DNA from: a virus
Direction: 5' to 3' (one strand)
DNA: 58,669 bases
Virus record (IMG/VR): IMGVR_UViG_3300005613_000075
Location: 1-58,669 of that record
The position numbers and the translations under genes are program-made. The notes under the pieces were generated by a model. The model was not told the origin of the DNA. It did not search any database and worked only from the letters and a program-made list of their open reading frames with translations. Shown one piece after another: positions 11,060-56,390 of this stretch (positions are counted from its first letter, which is position 1; each line of letters opens with the position of its first letter).

Positions 11060-11557
11060 ATGACTGAAGTGATCAATCAAGATTATGAAGTTTCGAGTGA
11101 AGGCGCTGTACGACGCTGGGAGATTCCCTATGCCCGGATGACCGATACCTCGCCTACGGTAACACTACCGGCGGAGGTCACCTGTCTGTTGGACGGGAAG
11201 CAAATGACCGGTACGGTGCTGTCAATTGACGCCACTGACAGCGTGGCTATCGTAGACTTTACCTGCTCGATGGTCTACCAGCACAACGTCCGGAACGTAT
11301 TGACCTATAACCCCGGCGTGGCGGAATTGACCTGGGGGCCTATCAACATTGGCGACCTGGTGTACTACGACAGTTCGGCCTCAATGCCGGCTGGCACAAA
11401 ACTGAGCACCAGTCCTTTGAACACCGGCGGGACGGCCAATTCGCTGTTTGGACGAGCGGTGCCCTATGACATTGCGGCCGACACCTTCCCGAAGGGCGGA
11501 ATCACCGCGTCCACGCAGGTGTGTGCCATAATGCAGGTGGGGGCTGGCGGTTCATAA
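11060..11557 (+). CDS. Head decoration-like protein (DUF2190-like pattern, putative)
   Basis: 165 aa directly before the major capsid gene; GDLVYYD...GRAV...VGAGGS pattern; AGGAGG SD. Confidence 0.45.
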   Translation: MTEVINQDYEVSSEGAVRRWEIPYARMTDTSPTVTLPAEVTCLLDGKQMTGTVLSIDATDSVAIVDFTCSMVYQHNVRNVLTYNPGVAELTWGPINIGDLVYYDSSASMPAGTKLSTSPLNTGGTANSLFGRAVPYDIAADTFPKGGITASTQVCAIMQVGAGGS

Positions 11558-11607
11558 ATACTGACAGTTGTTGGATAACTGTCCAGGAATGTAATGGAGG
11601 TAATACC

Positions 11608-12792
11608 ATGTATCAAGTAATTCAATGGTTGAAAGACACCGCAGAGGCCGTTCACGAAAAGGGGGAGACCCCTTCCAGTGGGCAATTTGCCGAGGCCATG
11701 TTCTGGGGCGCGGTCGAATCTGACAGGGGAGCGGAATATACGGATGAACGGCGTAAGTTGGTAAAAGACCGGGCGTTCGATATTCAGATGAGCGCGTTCA
11801 CGGTGCTGGAGAAGAATTGGCGACAGATGAACGGACGGGAATTCGTCGAGACGATGACCACCGCTCATTTCGCTGACTATTTCTCCACCGCTTTGTCCCG
11901 GCTGTTCTACAAGGACTATGAATATCAAGTGGGAGCCTGGGTGAACTATACCTATGCTGACACCACACCTGACTTTCGGGACGTTGACCGGCACAGGATG
12001 ACCGAACCCGGGACGTTGTATCGCCGCCGCGAGAAGGCTGAAGCCAAAGCGACGGACATCTCTGATAGTCACATTTCCTACGGGGTAGAGGAATACGCCC
12101 GGCAGTTCGACGTAAGTTGGCAGACCATCGTCAACGACGACCTGGGAAAGATCAAAGAGACTCCGCAGAGAATGTTCAAAGCCGCCAAGAGATTCGAGGA
12201 TAGTTTCGTCTCGAACCTGTACGACAACGCTACCACCCAGGGTACGATTGCCGGGTTGGGAGCGCCTTGGTCAGGTACAGGACGGTTGACCGCTGCTAAC
12301 CTGGCTATCGGACTGAACGCCATGATGCAACGGACGGATGCCAGTGGTATACAGATGAACATCGGTCGGGTGCATCTGGTCATTCCGCCCATTCTCAAAA
12401 TTCAGGCCCAGGCGGTACTCAAGGACCTGATTCAGTACGGAGCGGGGGGAGTGGGAGACATCCTGTCGCAGTACATCGCTGGCGTGCATGTAGATCCCTA
12501 TATCACGACCGCCGGGGCTAACGTGCCCTGGTATCTGTTTGCTGATCCTAGTGAAATACCGGCGGTGACCGTAGCCCGTCTGAATGGCTGGACCGGTCCG
12601 GCTGTCTTCATGAAAAAGTCCAACATGGAGACCATCATGGGCAGCGCTCCGGCGGCGATTCTGATGGGATCGTTCGAGACGGGCGACATCGAGTACATGG
12701 TGGAAGATGTCATCGGCGGCTGGGACGACGCAAGCCTAGTGGGGGTCAGCGATTACCGCGGGCTGTATTACTCTTCAGGTACTACGGTGTAA
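11608..12792 (+). CDS. Major capsid protein (putative, Mu gpT/HK97-fold-like)
   Basis: 394 aa from the ATG at 11608 with GGAGG SD; position after scaffold/decoration; FDVSWQTIVNDDLG-type motif. Confidence 0.7.
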   Translation: MYQVIQWLKDTAEAVHEKGETPSSGQFAEAMFWGAVESDRGAEYTDERRKLVKDRAFDIQMSAFTVLEKNWRQMNGREFVETMTTAHFADYFSTALSRLFYKDYEYQVGAWVNYTYADTTPDFRDVDRHRMTEPGTLYRRREKAEAKATDISDSHISYGVEEYARQFDVSWQTIVNDDLGKIKETPQRMFKAAKRFEDSFVSNLYDNATTQGTIAGLGAPWSGTGRLTAANLAIGLNAMMQRTDASGIQMNIGRVHLVIPPILKIQAQAVLKDLIQYGAGGVGDILSQYIAGVHVDPYITTAGANVPWYLFADPSEIPAVTVARLNGWTGPAVFMKKSNMETIMGSAPAAILMGSFETGDIEYMVEDVIGGWDDASLVGVSDYRGLYYSSGTTV

Positions 12793-45433: not shown

Positions 45434-46063
45434 ATGGAATCAGAAAAGCTACAGATGATTCTGAAATCACATGAGAAGCATCTGAATGGGGAAAAAGACG
45501 GTCAGCGCGCCGACCTGTACGGGGCCAACCTGCGCGGGGCCGACCTGTACGAGGCCGACCTGAGCGAGGCCAACCTGTACGGGGCCAACCTGTACGGGGC
45601 CGACCTGTACGGGGCCAACCTGCGCGGGGCCAACCTGTACGGGGCCGACCTGCGCGAGGCCAACCTGCGCGGGGCCGACCTGAGCGAGACTAAGGGATTA
45701 CTCAATCCCACAACTTGGCTTCGAGAGAAATTCAAAACCACACCGGAGGGGCTGATAGTCTACAAAGCCCTTGGAGATACATATCAGCCTGCCCCGTCCC
45801 ACTGGACAACTGCGCCGGGCGAATATCTGGAGGAAGTCGTCAATCCAGATCGGGGGACCGACTGCGGGTGCGGGGTCAACTTTGCCACACCGGAATGGAT
45901 ACAGGCTAATTACAGCGGGAGAATCCAGAACGGCACTGTCCAGGTCTGGGAATGTCTGATTGAATGGCTTGATCTGGCTTCTGTGGTCGTGCCGTTCAAC
46001 ACCGATGGCAAGGCACGGTGTGGACGGCTGAAACTGTTGCGGACCGCAGGAGAGACACCATGA
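45434..46063 (+). CDS. Pentapeptide-repeat protein with C-terminal globular domain
   Basis: At least 12 consecutive A(D/N)LxG/E pentapeptides ([25 protein letters not shown]...); AGGAG SD before the ATG at 45434 (track start 45413). Confidence 0.8.
45509..45688 (+). repeat. 12 tandem 15-bp units GCC(G/A)ACCTG(T/C/A)(A/G)CG(G/A)G (coding, pentapeptide repeats)
   Basis: Counted directly; units nearly identical at nt level. Confidence 0.9.
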
Positions 46064-50264: not shown

Positions 50265-50354
50265 AGCGGTTTTTAGAACTGCTCCTGCGCTCTGCCTTTG
50301 TCGCTTGAGGGATTGCCAGGAGCTGTAGGAGCAGTTCTAAGGATCGCTTTTGTT
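50265..50354 (+). terminator. Leader long hairpin with T-tract (terminator/attenuator-like)
   Basis: AGCGGTTTTTAGAACTGCTCCT pairs with AGGAGCAGTTCTAAGGATCGCT (22 bp including G-U pairs), followed by TTTTGTT and then GGAGG-ATG at 50369. Confidence 0.55.
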
Positions 50355-50368
50355 ATGGAGGTGATACA

Positions 50369-51220
50369 ATGTCAGTTGAAGTAATGAGTGTGGTATGGAA
50401 ATTGGATCTGCCACAGAACAAAAAGTTGGTATTATTGGCTATCGCCGATCATGCCAATGATGATGGCATAGCATGGCCCTCGCAGGGTCGCATTGCTTGG
50501 AAGACTGGCTACAAACGGAGAAATATCAAGCGCATCTTGGATGAACTGATAGAGGATGGACTCCTGCAAGTAATGAGGGTCGGACGTGGTCGTGGCAACT
50601 CTACTGTTCATCAATTGACGCTAGAAAATGCCCCCCAATTACCAGAATACAACGCCGATGACTACTATGTTCCATTCAAAGAAAAGGTGACGCCACTGAC
50701 ATCTAATACTGTAAAAGGTGTAATCCCGGACGAAAAGGTGCAATCCGAGGTAATAAAAGGTGCAATAGCTAATACACCTGAACCATCATTTGAACCATCA
50801 TTTGAACCATCATATTCTGCGTCAAAAAGCGACGCAGACCTCGGTGTTATATCTGCTGGTGAAGTAATAGATCCACCAAGAGCCATATCAGCAAGTAAAG
50901 GCAATAGTAAGAACGAGATCCGTGGAAACTTAGAACAATACTTCGCGGAGATCAGTAATATACCATTGCCAAAACGTGAGACTGAAAGGCAACGTAAGGC
51001 TGCTGGTGAGTTATGGTGGGGACCACTTCGGGAAATATTGGACATGACAAACTGGGATCCAGAGCAGGCGAAGGGTTTGATACGCGAGTCATATAAGGCG
51101 TTGAAGGCTCCTGAGAACAAGCTCAATGTATCCAGTCCCAAAAGTATTTTGAAGACAGCAATCTCACTACATGCCGACGGGCGGGTCGGCGCCAACGGAA
51201 GGAGAATAATCCGAGTATGA
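50369..51220 (+). CDS. Replication initiator-like protein (N-terminal wHTH)
   Basis: N-terminus VVWKLDLPQNKKLVLLAIADHANDDGIAWPSQGRIAWKTGYKRRNIKRILDELIEDGLL is typical of phage HTH replication/DnaD-like loaders; precedes the helicase with ATGA coupling. Confidence 0.5.
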   Translation: MSVEVMSVVWKLDLPQNKKLVLLAIADHANDDGIAWPSQGRIAWKTGYKRRNIKRILDELIEDGLLQVMRVGRGRGNSTVHQLTLENAPQLPEYNADDYYVPFKEKVTPLTSNTVKGVIPDEKVQSEVIKGAIANTPEPSFEPSFEPSYSASKSDADLGVISAGEVIDPPRAISASKGNSKNEIRGNLEQYFAEISNIPLPKRETERQRKAAGELWWGPLREILDMTNWDPEQAKGLIRESYKALKAPENKLNVSSPKSILKTAISLHADGRVGANGRRIIRV

Positions 51221-52230
51221 AGCACACTATGGACGACATTCAGGATATCACGTACACTCCGAACGCGGCGGTAAAGTCCGCGTTGGAAATCATCACAGAG
51301 TTACACGAACAAGCCCAACAACCACATCCCGATCTGGGTGTATTCACTGGGTTGAAGGATGTAGACGAGGTCATGTTCCCCGGCAAGCCGGGCCACGTCA
51401 TTGCCGTACTGGGACGTACCAATCATGGCAAGTCCCAATTCATGCAATTTTGGGCACGTAACCAGTCGGCATTTATCTGCGAACGGGAGCAGCAGGGACT
51501 GGCGAAAGACAATCAGTGCGTGGTGTTTGTCACTTGGGAGCAGGCTATTGAAGAAGTCATTTGCTTTGACCTGGCACAGTCAGCGAAGATTTCGTCACGC
51601 GACGTAATGCTTGGCAAGATCAGTGACGAGCAATTACGTCGGCTGCATCTGGTGGATGGTATGAAGCGAGCCACAATGCCCATCTATTTGATAGGTCACA
51701 GCGTCCAGGCCGGTAAAGCACGCCCAGCATTGACATTAACAGCGGTGCGGGACGGGTTGCGATTGCTGCGTGAGAATTATGATGTCAAGCCTCGCGTTTT
51801 ATTCTTGGATTATCTCCAAGAGATTACTCCCGAACAAGGGCGTACCAAAGAGGAACAAACGCGGTACAATGCCTCCACGCTAAAGGATATTGCCTTTGAG
51901 ATGCGGTGTACTGTGGTAGTGGGAACACAGGCCAAGCGGACGAGCAACGATAAGATGTGGCTGCCTCAGATAGACGATAGTGAGTGGACGTCTACCCTGG
52001 AACATACCTGTGATGTTATATTCGGTATCTGGTATCCGCACCGGGCCAAAGAGATTGAACTGGGGGATGTCATTACACGCGGCAAGGTCAATATGACAGT
52101 TACAGAGAACCTGTTTATACTCGGATTGCTTAAACAGAGATGGGGCGTGGCGGATAGGTGGTGGCCGCTTCATATTCGCCCTGAGATCAACCATATTGCC
52201 CCGATGGAACTGGAGCGACATGATCTGTAG
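51217..52230 (+). CDS. DnaB-family replicative helicase (RecA-like C-terminal domain)
   Basis: Walker A GRTNHGKS; FLDYLQEI matches the DnaB IDYLQL motif; 337 aa. Confidence 0.65.
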   Translation: MKHTMDDIQDITYTPNAAVKSALEIITELHEQAQQPHPDLGVFTGLKDVDEVMFPGKPGHVIAVLGRTNHGKSQFMQFWARNQSAFICEREQQGLAKDNQCVVFVTWEQAIEEVICFDLAQSAKISSRDVMLGKISDEQLRRLHLVDGMKRATMPIYLIGHSVQAGKARPALTLTAVRDGLRLLRENYDVKPRVLFLDYLQEITPEQGRTKEEQTRYNASTLKDIAFEMRCTVVVGTQAKRTSNDKMWLPQIDDSEWTSTLEHTCDVIFGIWYPHRAKEIELGDVITRGKVNMTVTENLFILGLLKQRWGVADRWWPLHIRPEINHIAPMELERHDL

Positions 52231-52259
52231 GGCGCTACGGCGCGGAGAGGGGGAGTGAT

Positions 52260-52288
52260 TTGACAAATATTCTGATTGGTGCTATACT
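52260..52288 (+). promoter_or_regulatory. Sigma70-like promoter TTGACA-17-TATACT (copy B)
   Basis: Paralogous to 49156..49184. Confidence 0.65.
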
Positions 52289-52289
52289 A

Positions 52290-52405
52290 TAGACGCTAAG
52301 ATGTGAAGTCGCTTTTTTGTTTGCCAACAGAGGCCCTTGTATTACCGGAAGCGACCGCATCTTAGCAGTGTGGCAAACACCGGTAACACAAGGGCTTTTG
52401 TTTTT
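52290..52405 (+). ncRNA. Conserved structured leader RNA, copy B
   Basis: P1 GCTAAGATG (52295-52303)/CATCTTAGC (52358-52366). P1b GTCGC/GCGAC. Terminator arms 52333-52348/52380-52395 plus TTTTGTTTTT. Confidence 0.55.
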
Positions 52406-52424
52406 GAGCAAATGGAGGCTAGTC

Positions 52425-53027
52425 ATGGGTAACATCGTATCAGCAGGGGTAGACATTCGGGGCACGCGTCCGTTCCTGTGGCATTGGTTTGGACCGAACG
52501 CTATCTCATTGGAGAAGGTCGAACGGACGGGAGTGGCCGGCAACGACCCACAAGAGTGGCGCAATTCTGTTTTGTTCACCAACGAAGGCCAGCTATACAT
52601 CGAACCGACGTACGTCTTCGGTTCGATTCGAGACGGCAGCAAGCATACCAAGAAAGGCAGAGGCAGTATCCAGAAACTTGTCACGGCGACCTTGCAGGTA
52701 GTGAATGACCGTATCCTATTTGACCGGTTCATACCGGGATTCGACAAGGGATTGCCTGATGAACTCACTACTGATAATGAGCAACCGGTTTATCTTGACG
52801 TGAGGTCATGTGTCAATCCCAGCACCAGAGGGCGCAACGTGCGTTACCGGGTCGCGGCAGCGGCGGGTTGGCAGGCGTTCTTCCGCATCGAATGGGATAA
52901 GACCATCGTCTCTACCGGTGAGATGCAAGCTGTTCTGATTGACGCCGGGCGGTTGGCAGGCATTGGGGACGGGCGCAATATCGGATTTGGTCGCTATGAG
53001 ATCGTCGGGGTAGACCTCAGCGACTAA
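52425..53027 (+). CDS. Hypothetical 200-aa protein with C-terminal glycine-rich loop GIGDGRNIGFGRYEIV (RAMP/Cas6-like motif, speculative)
   Basis: GGAGG SD at 52414; the upstream part of tracked ORF 52317.. is promoter/leader. The helix-Gly-loop-strand pattern resembles the RAMP G-rich loop. Confidence 0.5.
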   Translation: MGNIVSAGVDIRGTRPFLWHWFGPNAISLEKVERTGVAGNDPQEWRNSVLFTNEGQLYIEPTYVFGSIRDGSKHTKKGRGSIQKLVTATLQVVNDRILFDRFIPGFDKGLPDELTTDNEQPVYLDVRSCVNPSTRGRNVRYRVAAAAGWQAFFRIEWDKTIVSTGEMQAVLIDAGRLAGIGDGRNIGFGRYEIVGVDLSD

Positions 53028-53045
53028 CGCTGCCTGGTATGGAGC

Positions 53046-53120
53046 GTGGCAAGGCCAGGCCTGGCTAGGCTGGGTGAGGCTAGTCCTGGCATGGCGCGGC
53101 TTGGCCGGGCGAGGCAAGGG
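53046..53120 (+). repeat. Array 1 of pentanucleotide-periodic NNGGC motif (15 units)
   Basis: gtGGC aaGGC caGGC ctGGC taGGC tgGGT gaGGC taGTC ctGGC atGGC gcGGC ttGGC cgGGC gaGGC aaGGG; 12/15 exact GGC. Confidence 0.9.
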
Positions 53121-53149
53121 AAAGACTGCCATTATCGTTACAACCAGGT

Positions 53150-53224
53150 ATGGCGAGGTGAGGCTGGGCCCGGCCGGGCTGGGCCAGGCGGGGCGAGGTC
53201 TGGCTTGGCGGGGCAAGGCAAGGA
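53150..53224 (+). repeat. Array 2 of pentanucleotide-periodic NNGGC motif (15 units), ending on the SD of the next gene
   Basis: atGGC gaGGT gaGGC tgGGC ccGGC cgGGC tgGGC caGGC ggGGC gaGGT ctGGC ttGGC ggGGC aaGGC aaGGA; 12/15 exact GGC. Confidence 0.9.
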
Positions 53225-53233
53225 GAATCATCA

Positions 53234-53524
53234 ATGCCCAAAAGCAGGCAACCGCAAGAGGTATGGCAAGAGACAAGACGCATTGTCTGGGAACGTGACA
53301 GGCACAAGTGCGTTCACTGTGGTGAGTCTGTGAAGCTCGAAGAGTGCCACATTGACCACATCAAGTCGGGTAAGTTAGCTGGCAACGAGTTAAGCAACCT
53401 GCGAACATTGTGCCGTCGATGTCATGTGTTGCGAGTAGACAAACGACATCGGGGGATGATAGCGTCGGCATTACGAGATGGAATTATCCCATCGGATTGG
53501 CGGGGGCTGGTATGGGGGGAATAA
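53234..53524 (+). CDS. Small HNH endonuclease
   Basis: CVHCG...CHIDHIKSG...NLRTLCRRCHVLR; AAGGAG SD at 53219-53224. Confidence 0.75.
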   Translation: MPKSRQPQEVWQETRRIVWERDRHKCVHCGESVKLEECHIDHIKSGKLAGNELSNLRTLCRRCHVLRVDKRHRGMIASALRDGIIPSDWRGLVWGE

Positions 53525-53548
53525 GGACAGAGTATTTAGGAGGAAGAC

Positions 53549-53821
53549 GTGGCTATTTGGATCGATCCGAAGTCTAAGCAACGCTACTGGGATTTTTGCA
53601 TCTCATTCCACGACTACTGGCCGCGGGGCTTCACCAAACGGCGACTGGAGCGTATCCGGTTGGCGTGTTGGGAAGACAACCACTTCTGGGGTGATGTTAT
53701 CTACCGGCATGGGGGACACGCGAATCCCCGCGACATCAAGCCGGAACTATTCGAGCACTGTATTGGGAATTTCTATGCGATGCTGGCGGAGGTCGCCAGA
53801 GGGGATGGGATAATCAAATGA
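53549..53821 (+). CDS. Hypothetical protein containing the CWEDNHFWGDVIYRHGGHA motif
   Basis: AGGAGG SD, GTG start; motif duplicated at 38466-38530. Confidence 0.55.
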   Translation: MAIWIDPKSKQRYWDFCISFHDYWPRGFTKRRLERIRLACWEDNHFWGDVIYRHGGHANPRDIKPELFEHCIGNFYAMLAEVARGDGIIK

Positions 53822-54084
53822 GCTACGTGCGGTTTGGTGAGGAAGGTTCTGATGTGTATGTGTACAGCCACGCGTATGGTGGCTTCGTGTGCGATATGTG
53901 CCGGCTGGAGGAAGAGAATTGGACATTTGTGGCTATGTCTCGCTCTGGTATGATCGCCCACCTGCGGGAGCATATCGCCGCGGGGCACGTTGTCCCGGAG
54001 TGTGCTATTGAGCGACTTGAGGAAGAGATTGAGGCAGAGGGCGACGAGTGGCAGGCGTGTGAGAGGGGGGAGGACGATGAGTAA
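53818..54084 (+). CDS. Hypothetical Cys/His-containing acidic protein
   Basis: ATGA coupling; 88 aa. Confidence 0.5.
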   Translation: MSYVRFGEEGSDVYVYSHAYGGFVCDMCRLEEENWTFVAMSRSGMIAHLREHIAAGHVVPECAIERLEEEIEAEGDEWQACERGEDDE

Positions 54085-54337
54085 ATATCAGAAATACTTA
54101 GACTGTCAGCATCGTTGGATGAAAGGCTATAAGTGGTGCGTGAAGTGTGGTGCTGCGAAGGACGACCTCCGCTGGATGAATGAGTTTGCTGCTATCGAGG
54201 TTCAGCGTGATGAATTGCTGGCGGCGTGTGAGGCCGCTTGGTTCGTGCTCCAAAAATATGATACTAGAGATGAGTGGGAGGCGGGCCAAACAGTTTTCAC
54301 CGCCATTGCCAAGGCGAAGGGAGAGAATGATGAGTGA
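54077..54337 (+). CDS. Hypothetical protein (paralog of the C-terminal part of 54327..54671)
   Basis: Shares LLAACEAA...AKGENDE with the next gene; CVKCG. Confidence 0.5.
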   Translation: MSKYQKYLDCQHRWMKGYKWCVKCGAAKDDLRWMNEFAAIEVQRDELLAACEAAWFVLQKYDTRDEWEAGQTVFTAIAKAKGENDE

Positions 54338-54671
54338 GCACACGCCAGGACCTTGGGAGAGTGATGATGGCGCAGTAGAATATGAACCCGGACATGGCCC
54401 ATTTTATGAACAGGGCGCATCGATAACAGCAGGCTACGATCATTACGTTGTCGTCGGTGGCTGTCAGGACGAGCAGGGTAGCGCGATCGGTGTTCTGCGT
54501 AATGCAGATGCTCGGCTTATGGCTGCCTCGCCTGATCTGCTGGCAGCGTGTGAGGCGGCCCTAAATTTTATTGACATATTTGATGGGTTTGTGCACGTGG
54601 AAAGTGCCACTCACAAACAACTCAAAGCTGCTATTGAGAAGGCGAAGGGAGAGAGCGATGAGAACAAGTAA
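54327..54671 (+). CDS. Hypothetical protein (TPGPWE...ARLMAASPDLLAACEAAL type)
   Basis: Overlapping start; 114 aa. Confidence 0.5.
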   Translation: MMSEHTPGPWESDDGAVEYEPGHGPFYEQGASITAGYDHYVVVGGCQDEQGSAIGVLRNADARLMAASPDLLAACEAALNFIDIFDGFVHVESATHKQLKAAIEKAKGESDENK

Positions 54672-54990
54672 CGGTTGGAAGCAACCCGTTCGTTGTGCGG
54701 TGGATAGCATGTATAGGCGACGGACTCGATTAGTAAAGCCTACTGCCACCCCCGGTCTGGTTCTTACAGAGTGGTATTCCCCTCGTTGGGAATACCCCAA
54801 ATACGGCATCACTCACCAGCGTTCGGGCTGGGGGGTCGGGGCACATTACCGCGCATTGGAGCAAGCGCAACAAGTGGCCGCGGAGCTTGGACAATTGGTA
54901 GACTGGACGCAGCCTGGACGCAGTCTGGCGAGGTTGATTACTGATGAAGAATTTGCGGGGAATCTTGCCGAGGTATTAGGAGAAGAGTGA
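54658..54990 (+). CDS. Hypothetical protein
   Basis: Overlapping start; 110 aa. Confidence 0.45.
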   Translation: MRTSNGWKQPVRCAVDSMYRRRTRLVKPTATPGLVLTEWYSPRWEYPKYGITHQRSGWGVGAHYRALEQAQQVAAELGQLVDWTQPGRSLARLITDEEFAGNLAEVLGEE

Positions 54991-55571
54991 TGAACCTGGA
55001 ACCAGAACGTAGGTGGGCACGTGCTTGGAAGCAGGCGGCGAAGGCTTGGCGGGCCAGCCATCGCTTCTATGAACGGCTAGTGGACAGTTGGGAGCGGTGC
55101 TATGATGATACGTATAAGCAACTTAAGGAGGCCCGCTACTGGGCTATCCGTATGAAGCGGGAGCGGGATGAACAACAGAGGTTGCGAGAGATGAAATATC
55201 GTCGCAACATGGAACTAATTGCAGAGAAACAGGCGTTGCAGACACAAGTAGAGGAACTCGAAGCTAGTAACAAGCTCTTCTCCGACTGTCTCCACCGGGC
55301 ACAGCTTGCCTACAAAGAAGCACATCCCGACCTGGACGAGAGCTTCTGGCCTGATGGAGCAGAGGCGTTCGTGAATTGGGTAGAGGGATTGCAGGCGGAA
55401 CTTGATACACGTCAAGAGCGGCGGTGTGAGACGTGTCGTAAATGCGGCACGCGAACAAGTGCCATATTCCCCCACAAGGAGTTACCATATTGTCAGTTTT
55501 GGAGTGGATTTAGACAGCCGGATGATTATTGTTCTCGTTGGGAGGCCCGCGATGAACCAAGCGACAGCTAA
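54990..55571 (+). CDS. Hypothetical coiled-coil protein with C-terminal Cys cluster
   Basis: GTGATG start region overlapping the previous stop; CETCRKCG...C...C. Confidence 0.5.
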   Translation: MNLEPERRWARAWKQAAKAWRASHRFYERLVDSWERCYDDTYKQLKEARYWAIRMKRERDEQQRLREMKYRRNMELIAEKQALQTQVEELEASNKLFSDCLHRAQLAYKEAHPDLDESFWPDGAEAFVNWVEGLQAELDTRQERRCETCRKCGTRTSAIFPHKELPYCQFWSGFRQPDDYCSRWEARDEPSDS

Positions 55572-55929
55572 CGCAGCGGAGATGTTTGATAGTGTACATG
55601 AGCGGGACTTCTACCTGGCCTGTCAGGTGGAAGGGTTGCCAGAGCCAGAGACGCAGTACCAATTTTGTCCAGGGCGCAAGTATCGGGCTGATTTCGCTTG
55701 GCCTGCCCGACGGGTGTTGGTGGAAGTGGAGGGCGGAGAGTGGGCAAAAGGTCGGCATGTCCGGGGCGCTGGTTATACTCGCGACTGCAAGAAGTACAAC
55801 TTGGCAGTGCTGAGGGGCTGGCGATTACTACGTTTCACCGGTGGTATGATTGCTGGTGATCCGTGCGGTTGTGTCCGGCAAGTGCAGGAATTGTTGCAGC
55901 AGGAGGGCTGGCGGGTGGAGGTGCTATGA
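55552..55929 (+). CDS. Vsr/DUF559-like PD-(D/E)xK endonuclease (putative)
   Basis: YRADFAWPARRVLVEVEGGEW...DCKKYNLAVLRGWRLLRF matches the D...(E/V)xEG...K and GW-x-(V/L)-(L/I)-RF pattern of that family. Confidence 0.5.
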   Translation: MNQATANAAEMFDSVHERDFYLACQVEGLPEPETQYQFCPGRKYRADFAWPARRVLVEVEGGEWAKGRHVRGAGYTRDCKKYNLAVLRGWRLLRFTGGMIAGDPCGCVRQVQELLQQEGWRVEVL

Positions 55930-56390
55930 CGCGACCTAACCGTGACCTGGATACCGTCACCAACGAGGAACTGGAGGCGGTCAAGCATCTGACTTTCCTG
56001 GACGCCCGACGGGTGCTCGGTATCGGCTGCAGTCAGACTCTCAAGAGGCTCTACATCGCCCGGGGGATTGACTACGTGAAACGGAGGCCCGGTGAAATGG
56101 CTGAGTACAAGACGCGTAAACCGTATACCCGTAATGGCAAGTACAAGAAAAGCAAGACCACCGGACTATTTGGGAATGGCGACCCCGTTCCCCTCCACCG
56201 GGACGCGATGGACGAGTCCATTGCCTCCGACTTAGGGTTGACAAACACCTGTCCCGACCTGGGCACAGAGGCTTGTCTGTCATGCGAGCTGGGCTTGGAC
56301 CTTCCCGACGACTGCGACTGGAATTGCGGGGACTGTATTCATGAGTGGACGTGTCCTTGTTCGTGGATCGGTTGGCGGAATAGACAATAG
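55926..56390 (+). CDS. Hypothetical protein with HTH-like N-terminus and Cys-rich C-terminus
   Basis: ATGA coupling; 154 aa. Confidence 0.45.
   Translation: MTRPNRDLDTVTNEELEAVKHLTFLDARRVLGIGCSQTLKRLYIARGIDYVKRRPGEMAEYKTRKPYTRNGKYKKSKTTGLFGNGDPVPLHRDAMDESIASDLGLTNTCPDLGTEACLSCELGLDLPDDCDWNCGDCIHEWTCPCSWIGWRNRQ

Follow-up and report, generated by a model that had tools for sequence, protein, structure and literature searches.

Two NNGGC pentamer arrays in an environmental phage genome, very probably vrRNA genes of a VIPR cassette with an HNH partner

Two tracts of strictly periodic pentamers lie between a gene for a protein of about 200 residues and a gene for a small HNH endonuclease in the phage genome analysed here, and the question that they raise is what such tracts are for and whether they are read as RNA, as DNA or as protein. 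The whole stretch of DNA that was analysed (58,669 nucleotides, called the window in what follows) is a phage genome, with its large ORFs all on the + strand and a capsid gene at 11521-12792. The first-pass annotation, made from the sequence alone, had described two arrays of 15 NNGGC units each, with GGC at pentamer positions 3-5 in 12 of 15 units of either array (53046-53120 and 53150-53224) and a spacer of 29 nt between them (53121-53149), and both the coordinates and the sequence are as it described. In array 1 the three other units end in GGT, GTC and GGG, and in array 2 in GGT (twice) and GGA, so that GGY units number 13 of 15 and 14 of 15 respectively. Also, the CAGGT at 53145-53149 is in phase with array 2, and counting it brings that array to 16 units. 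A sliding count of in-phase GGC per 15 units over the 58.7-kb window reaches 12 at the two arrays only, and counts of 7 or more are confined to their surroundings; the equivalent GCC count for the minus strand has a maximum of 5. When an 8-unit pattern was allowed up to 3 mismatches, 19 overlapping matches were obtained, all of them at the arrays, and none in 100 dinucleotide-preserving shuffles. Array 1 starts 19 nt past the stop codon of the upstream gene and both tracts are on the strand of that gene. The tandem-repeat list of the window holds no CRISPR-type repeats, and a search of 52000-54500 against Rfam at a permissive threshold gave chance-level matches only. The arrays are striking but are already explained, by work on the VIPR system posted between April and June 2026. 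With high confidence we read both of them as vrRNA genes of a phage-borne VIPR cassette, and we are about equally confident that this cassette spans 52260-53524 and is made up of a promoter-like site, a structured leader, vipr, two vrRNA genes and an HNH accessory gene (Table 1).

Table 1. Features of the putative VIPR cassette and of the genes upstream of it (positions in the window)
Feature	Position	Strand	Remarks
O-like replication initiator	50369-51220	+	upstream of arrays
DnaB-like helicase	51217-52230	+	upstream of arrays
Promoter-like site TTGACA-17-TATACT	52260-52288	+	11/12 consensus, with TG; candidate cassette promoter
Long leader hairpin, then U-tract	52311-52419	+	core about 52331-52400; between promoter-like site and vipr start
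vipr gene, 200-aa predicted Vipr RAMP protein	52425-53027	+	SD GGAGG 8 nt before ATG
Putative vrRNA1, repeat tract	53046-53120	+	15 NNGGY-type units
Putative vrRNA1, guide dinucleotides			GT AA CA CT TA TG GA TA CT AT GC TT CG GA AA
Putative vrRNA1, 3′ tail	53121-53144	+	AAAGACTGCCATTATCGTTACAAC; includes clade-conserved motif GCCATTATCGTTACAAC
Putative vrRNA2, repeat tract	53145-53224	+	15 units counted from 53150
Putative vrRNA2, guide dinucleotides			AT GA GA TG CC CG TG CA GG GA CT TT GG AA AA
Putative vrRNA2, short tail (probable; extent inferred)	53220-53240	+	AAGGAGAATCATCAATGCCCA; overlaps HNH gene SD and start codon
HNH endonuclease gene, 96 aa	53234-53524	+	Pfam HNH, E 5.8e-8

VIPR (Viral Interference Programmable Repeat) is a phage-borne, CRISPR-like system of RNA-guided DNA binding that was described in two 2026 preprints (10.64898/2026.04.26.720920 and 10.64898/2026.04.26.720927). 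Its parts are a Vipr RAMP protein of about 20 kDa and vrRNAs with 9-16 YNNGG repeats, in which GGY is conserved, NN is hypervariable and the 3′ tail is invariant; the NN dinucleotides pair with double-stranded DNA by a one-nucleotide-skip rule, and the outcome is a CRISPRi-like repression of competing phages and satellites (10.64898/2026.04.26.720920). Seven types are distinguished, and nucleases and helicases are among the products of their vap accessory genes. Only types III and V are said to bear nucleases, and these are placed mainly in cellular defence islands; the legend of fig. S21 names an HNH domain for Vap examples of types II, III and VII (10.64898/2026.04.26.720920). In the structure one Vipr protomer covers each 5-nt repeat with GGY flipped out, and in the system of SUSP1 the GGY is held by H17, R138, D177, W178 and R179 (10.64898/2026.04.26.720927). 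The guide code is a gapped one, and the system has been proposed as an ancestor of CRISPR RAMPs. On reading the SUSP1 locus directly, we found GGT-NN arrays with tails flanking vipr.

The protein encoded immediately upstream of the arrays links them to this system. A profile of its family (46 homologues) matches a single PDB sequence, 36pp_D 'SUSP1 Vipr protein' (E 3.7e-8), in an alignment that extends through the C-terminal G-rich loop, and hhalign against the Vipr ORF of phage SUSP1 gave a probability of 97.35% (E 1.6e-11, 169 columns, 29% identity). The AF2 model (pLDDT 88.3) has an RRM core with the topology beta-alpha-beta-beta(thumb hairpin 122-145)-beta-alpha-G-loop-beta, the G-rich loop GIGDGRNIGFG lying at residues 179-189, and the region equivalent to the alpha bundle is of low confidence. 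The model resembles Cas7/Csm3, and its best Foldseek matches are CRISPR RAMP complexes (type VII, type III Csm/Cmr and Cas7-11) with E about 1e-8. Four of the residues that hold GGY in SUSP1 have their counterparts here (H17 = H20, R138 = R142, D177 = D182 and R179 = R184), invariant or nearly so across the family, and W178, which stacks on G2, aligns with Gly183, so that 4 of the 5 GGY-contacting residues are kept. It may be noted that the ORF has no match in Pfam and one in a PHROG of unknown function, that tblastn of the protein against 50,697 phage records found no match, that a search of viral contigs for related loci with the single Vipr protein gave none that was confirmed, and that every one of the 1,395 matches to the family is listed as hypothetical or unnamed. 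As judged from profile alignment and predicted fold, the protein is a Vipr RAMP homologue, distant from the Vipr proteins studied so far. It is the single RAMP, and the single Cas-like protein, among the ORFs examined around the arrays. The first-pass idea that the RNA is read by a multimeric protein encoded nearby is thus borne out in its general form, since a Vipr homologue lies immediately upstream and, by analogy with the published structures, would place one protomer on each repeat.

The same annotation had proposed a comparison with relatives in which GGC should be kept while NN drifts, and the outcome was as predicted. Over 21 arrays of the clade, the first and the second G of the unit are G in 96% of cases each and position 3 is a pyrimidine in 98%, while NN holds 0.02-0.08 bits per position and has a dinucleotide entropy of 3.88 of 4 bits. 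The comparison with L121, a relative whose Vipr is 88% identical, agrees: GGY, the tail motif GCCATTATCGTTACAAC and the coding sequence on either side are kept, and most NN differ. The 5′ units of vrRNA1 are partly common to L121 and the remaining units differ, and from its sequence the first array of the window looks like a recombinant of two L121 arrays. The motif GCCATTATCGTTACAAC also follows the arrays in L121, and the variants GCCATTATCC and GCTATTATCC follow those in L122. RNA folding predicted no stable structure for the vrRNA1 tail, neither a hairpin nor a pseudoknot; the GCCATTATC motif is absent from vrRNA2, whose tail differs from that of vrRNA1. The spacing from vipr to the HNH gene is 206 nt in the window and anywhere between about 70 and about 330 nt in relatives, and the number of arrays varies as well. 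In relatives, arrays are also present upstream of vipr, in series of 1-3, with 3′ tails and far from any SD; no vrRNA is found upstream of vipr in the window. A candidate 5′ handle before each array, GGTATGG, was rejected, being absent in relatives and made up of just degenerate GGT-AT-GG units.

In IMG/VR, at least 120 viral contigs were found to hold a run of seven consecutive GGCNN units. Among the contigs listed, array lengths run from 6 to 142 units, many contigs have several arrays, and the table of all loci shows ORFs closely flanking the arrays on the same strand. At the loci that were read base by base, the arrays are intergenic, run in the direction of the genes beside them and stop a short way ahead of an SD and a start codon. 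Clustering of the array-flanking ORFs placed 63 of 254 in one family, to which the 52425-53027 protein of the window belongs, and an HMM found a Vipr-family ORF at 81 of the 120 loci among the matches listed. Because the contigs were chosen by DNA pattern alone, this is a statistical association of array and protein that does not depend on the VIPR papers. A second family of flanking ORFs (about 173 aa, MVYKLKPGSHIK...PLHDEFEWDD...) is present at L037 and at 26 other loci among L001-L120 and is a candidate Vap family; Pfam gave no match for it, and none for the five array-flanking families other than Vipr that were searched. The longest tract, L009 6301-7008, is one unbroken in-phase run of 142 GGCNN units, of which 120 are exact, and the array clusters of L045, L091 and L107 hold more than 100 GGC units each; lengths of the L009 kind far exceed the 9-16 (or up to 30) repeats of the VIPR preprints. 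L024 (2145-2460) has three arrays of 15, 12 and 14 units, each followed by an identical hairpin tail AAACACACTGCATCTCTTCGGAGGTGCAGAAGTTTGC, in a CRISPR-like layout of structured 'repeats' and GGCNN 'spacers'. Two vipr-vrRNA-HNH cassettes (L193 and L194) occur about 22 kb apart among phage-like genes on one contig of an Anaerolineae MAG (JAHDWA010000005.1), and L194 has additional arrays upstream of vipr.

The 3′ end of array 2 bears on how the cassette is expressed. The motif AAGGAG at 53220-53225 was correctly called the SD of the HNH gene in the first-pass annotation, because it lies 8 nt before the HNH ATG at 53234. The passage from the last array into the SD and ATG of the HNH gene recurs in L121 (AAGGAGGACTATCAATGCC), L193 (AAGGAGCAACACAATGCC) and L122 (GAGGAGTATTGAATGCC). 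HNH orthologues are found immediately downstream of vipr and arrays in L121, L122/L123, L124/L125, L193, L194, L195, L196 and L197, with the exception that in L195 the arrays are located after the HNH gene, and this synteny holds at all nine relatives' loci examined, amid unrelated phage neighbourhoods. As a conserved partner in the clade, the HNH protein is likely to be its accessory protein, a Vap nuclease, the basis for which is synteny; together with the shifting neighbourhoods, the synteny is in keeping with an HNH Vap in a mobile module of two genes.

The overlap of array and SD could also be taken to mean that the arrays exist to regulate HNH, with a TRAP-like multimer wrapping the GGC triplets of array 2 and hiding the SD, which was one hypothesis of the first-pass annotation. 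The triplets are indeed 2 nt apart, the last units do carry AAGGAG 8 nt before the HNH ATG, the junction is conserved in relatives, and Vipr coats the repeat tract in the published structures (10.64898/2026.04.26.720927). Yet the protein that goes with the arrays is a Vipr homologue of the Cas7-like RAMP kind and no TRAP ring, and the neighbouring ORFs have no TRAP family match. Arrays also lie upstream of vipr, 1-3 in series and far from any SD, and after the HNH gene in L195; the tails and the multiple arrays are left unexplained by an attenuator, and a pure binding platform fails to explain a near-random NN (3.9 of 4 bits). The vrRNA reading does explain it, because guide function has been shown experimentally for homologues. 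We therefore consider an attenuator as the reason for the arrays quite improbable. Nevertheless, given the Vipr coating and the conserved junction, it is physically plausible that the RBS becomes occluded on an unprocessed transcript as a side effect, and a secondary effect of vrRNA2 on HNH translation may exist because the last vrRNA overlaps the HNH SD. In a stronger form, the vrRNA2 tail would serve as the RBS of the nuclease gene, with assembly of the Vipr filament or processing of the transcript gating the synthesis of the HNH Vap, and the phage would cut a rival phage with the system instead of only silencing it; this we regard as doubtful. If true, guide loading would be coupled to nuclease expression and the phage would encode a VIPR of a destructive kind, in a setting other than the defence islands from which the nuclease types are reported.

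The other function put forward in the first-pass annotation acts at the DNA level, with the arrays as a replication origin or as a recognition array for a nuclease or for packaging. The arrays do follow the initiator and the DnaB-like helicase genes in the window, and several arrays in other contigs are at contig ends, but assembly breaks are expected to leave contig ends at repeats. In relatives the cassette lies beside capsid and scaffold genes (L122), tail genes (L197 and L193) or in other contexts, and not beside replication genes. The arrays occupy a single strand, the one that vipr is on, and a better origin candidate is at hand in the iteron-like repeats at 50712-50813, which makes a DNA-level main function highly improbable. 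These repeats lie within the initiator gene, as direct repeats of 20 nt (2.7 copies) and of 12 nt (2.9 copies, 100% identical), and they resemble the iterons of a lambda-type origin embedded in an initiator gene. It may be added that blastn in distant mode of 50300-56000 against 50,697 phage records gave no match. A repetitive Gly/Ala/Arg-rich protein read across the arrays, for instance from ORF 53046-53333, is hardly credible: two forward frames are open across the region, but the period is 5 nt and not 3 or 15, GGC is fixed in all three codon phases, the spacing from vipr to HNH and the number of arrays vary, no ORF is conserved in the relatives, and ORF 53046-53333 overlaps the well-supported HNH gene out of frame. 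The first-pass annotation had itself argued against coding from the 5-nt period, a judgement that the variable spacing in relatives upholds, and it had named a conserved translated peptide across the arrays as a finding that would tell against its view; no conserved ORF was found in the relatives examined. Its statement that all three forward frames and the reverse frames are open has to be corrected, since over 53036-53233 stops are absent from only two forward frames and one reverse frame, and the remaining three frames have 2-4 stops. A tandem repeat of the coding kind is found elsewhere in the window, at 45509-45686 (GCCAACCTGTACGGG, 15-nt period, about 11.6 copies), where it encodes a pentapeptide repeat, and this genuine coding stretch stands in contrast to the non-coding 5-nt arrays. 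A G-quadruplex reading was rejected, as was coding, on the conserved C/T after GG, the strand-specific link with a RAMP gene and the variable spacing.

As for the start of the cassette, the promoter-like site is a consensus match only, of which about 1 is expected by chance in the scanned region; TTGACA/TATAnT pairs are also seen by eye upstream of vipr in L195, L196 and L197. The leader hairpin folds at -51.9 kcal/mol (z = -4.8), with 0 of 200 shuffles as stable, and a comparable hairpin with a T-run is seen by eye upstream of vipr in L196 and L197. Its role could be that of an attenuator, of a small RNA or of a processing signal.

Taking the arrays as vrRNA genes, a mechanism can be proposed by homology with the SUSP1 and P. 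fulva systems. Transcription of each array on the + strand would yield a vrRNA about 100 nt long, and Vipr protomers would polymerise on it, one per 5-nt repeat. The GGY would be flipped out and gripped by the RRM sheet, the thumb and the G-loop, leaving the two variable bases exposed. The 15 NN dinucleotides would then jointly pair with 45 nt of double-stranded DNA, every third base being skipped (NNx rule). The target is likely to be a gene of some competitor (phage, prophage or satellite), and the binding would block transcription; the HNH partner that is conserved in this clade probably cuts the DNA in addition.

We also searched for such targets, by converting both guides to NNx patterns and scanning for them with seeds of 8-9 perfect consecutive units; six of the scans covered viral contigs, and metagenomes and genomes were covered by one scan each. 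The seeded scans are insensitive because so many perfect consecutive units were required, and they are much less sensitive than the nhmmer procedure of the VIPR paper. Within the window, allowing skips of 0-3 nt, the best self-target has 21 of 30 guide bases matched, which is within the shuffled-order null; self-targets are absent in the published systems too (10.64898/2026.04.26.720920). No natural target with at least 80% of NN matched and with supporting context was found in the seeded viral, metagenome and genome scans. The best viral match (24/30, in a provirus family) was rejected since its skip base falls on codon position 1, the wrong codon phase. The best genome match (26/30), on the opposite strand of a PAS histidine-kinase gene of the cyanobacterium Komarekiella, was judged to be a chance one, because it came out of 38 seeds that each had a probability of about 0.3-1% of such an extension. 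When units 2-10 of vrRNA2 (53155-53199) are written as NNx codons, they read [DE][DE]CPRC[HQ]G[DE], a CxxC zinc-finger motif. Many of the vrRNA2 seed matches, in viral and in cellular genomes, are CPRC zinc-finger genes, of which none extends to at least 80% in a supporting context. The CPRC reading hints at the kind of gene that vrRNA2 may target.

The locus is of interest as an uncharacterised VIPR member from an environmental phage, with a distantly related, GGC-preferring Vipr, and its specific points are the phage-borne HNH partner and the guide tail that overlaps the RBS of the nuclease gene. With a guide abutting the start codon of its nuclease partner, the clade could inform how nuclease Vaps are coupled to the filament. 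GGCNN arrays are common in viral contigs, some of them far longer than reported, which is useful for annotation, and 5-nt arrays of the NNGGC kind can now be labelled instead of being flagged as unknown.

Among known systems, TRAP has in common with this locus that a protein multimer reads triplets 2-3 nt apart on single-stranded RNA. The fold differs (a beta-sandwich 11-mer ring in TRAP against a helical filament of a RAMP in Vipr), as does the triplet ((G/U)AG in TRAP, GGC or GGT here), and the spacer bases hold no information in TRAP whereas they are the guide in VIPR. Also, TRAP regulates its own mRNA while VIPR targets foreign DNA. With Class 1 CRISPR-Cas, where Cas7/Csm3 assemble on crRNA, the likeness goes further and takes in the RAMP fold, the G-loop, the thumb, the protein filament along a guide RNA and the periodic base flipping. 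Unlike it, the window lacks CRISPR repeats and spacers as well as any further cas genes, the VIPR guide is non-contiguous, and the period is 5 nt (three bases sequestered, two pairing) in VIPR as against 6 nt (five pairing) in CRISPR. VIPR types III and V share with the cassette an accessory protein that is a predicted nuclease, but they are described as enriched in cellular defence islands whereas this clade is found in phage and prophage genomes. The closest comparison is with Escherichia phage SUSP1, the exemplar of VIPR type II (PDB 36pp). In both, the Vipr protein is a RAMP of about 200 aa that has a thumb and a G-loop, the vrRNA genes are made of GGY/NN pentanucleotides, lie on the strand of vipr and are each followed by a tail, and the cassette is compact and phage-borne, with one accessory gene and no self-target. 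The repeat number is 15 here and about 11-15 in SUSP1 by our own reading of that locus, and the SUSP1 tail start ATGGGYA recurs in close relatives of the window. The differences are that the homology between the two proteins is detectable by profile only, that W178 of SUSP1 is a Gly in the family of the window's protein, and that the third repeat base is C in 70% here (GGC) and T in 92% in SUSP1 (GGT). Unlike in SUSP1, the vrRNA tail in the window is shorter and has no predicted pseudoknot, and a vrRNA upstream of vipr is missing. Finally, the accessory gene encodes an HNH nuclease here in place of the DNA-binding Vap1 of SUSP1, and in the window, unlike SUSP1, the last vrRNA overlaps the SD and the ATG of that gene.
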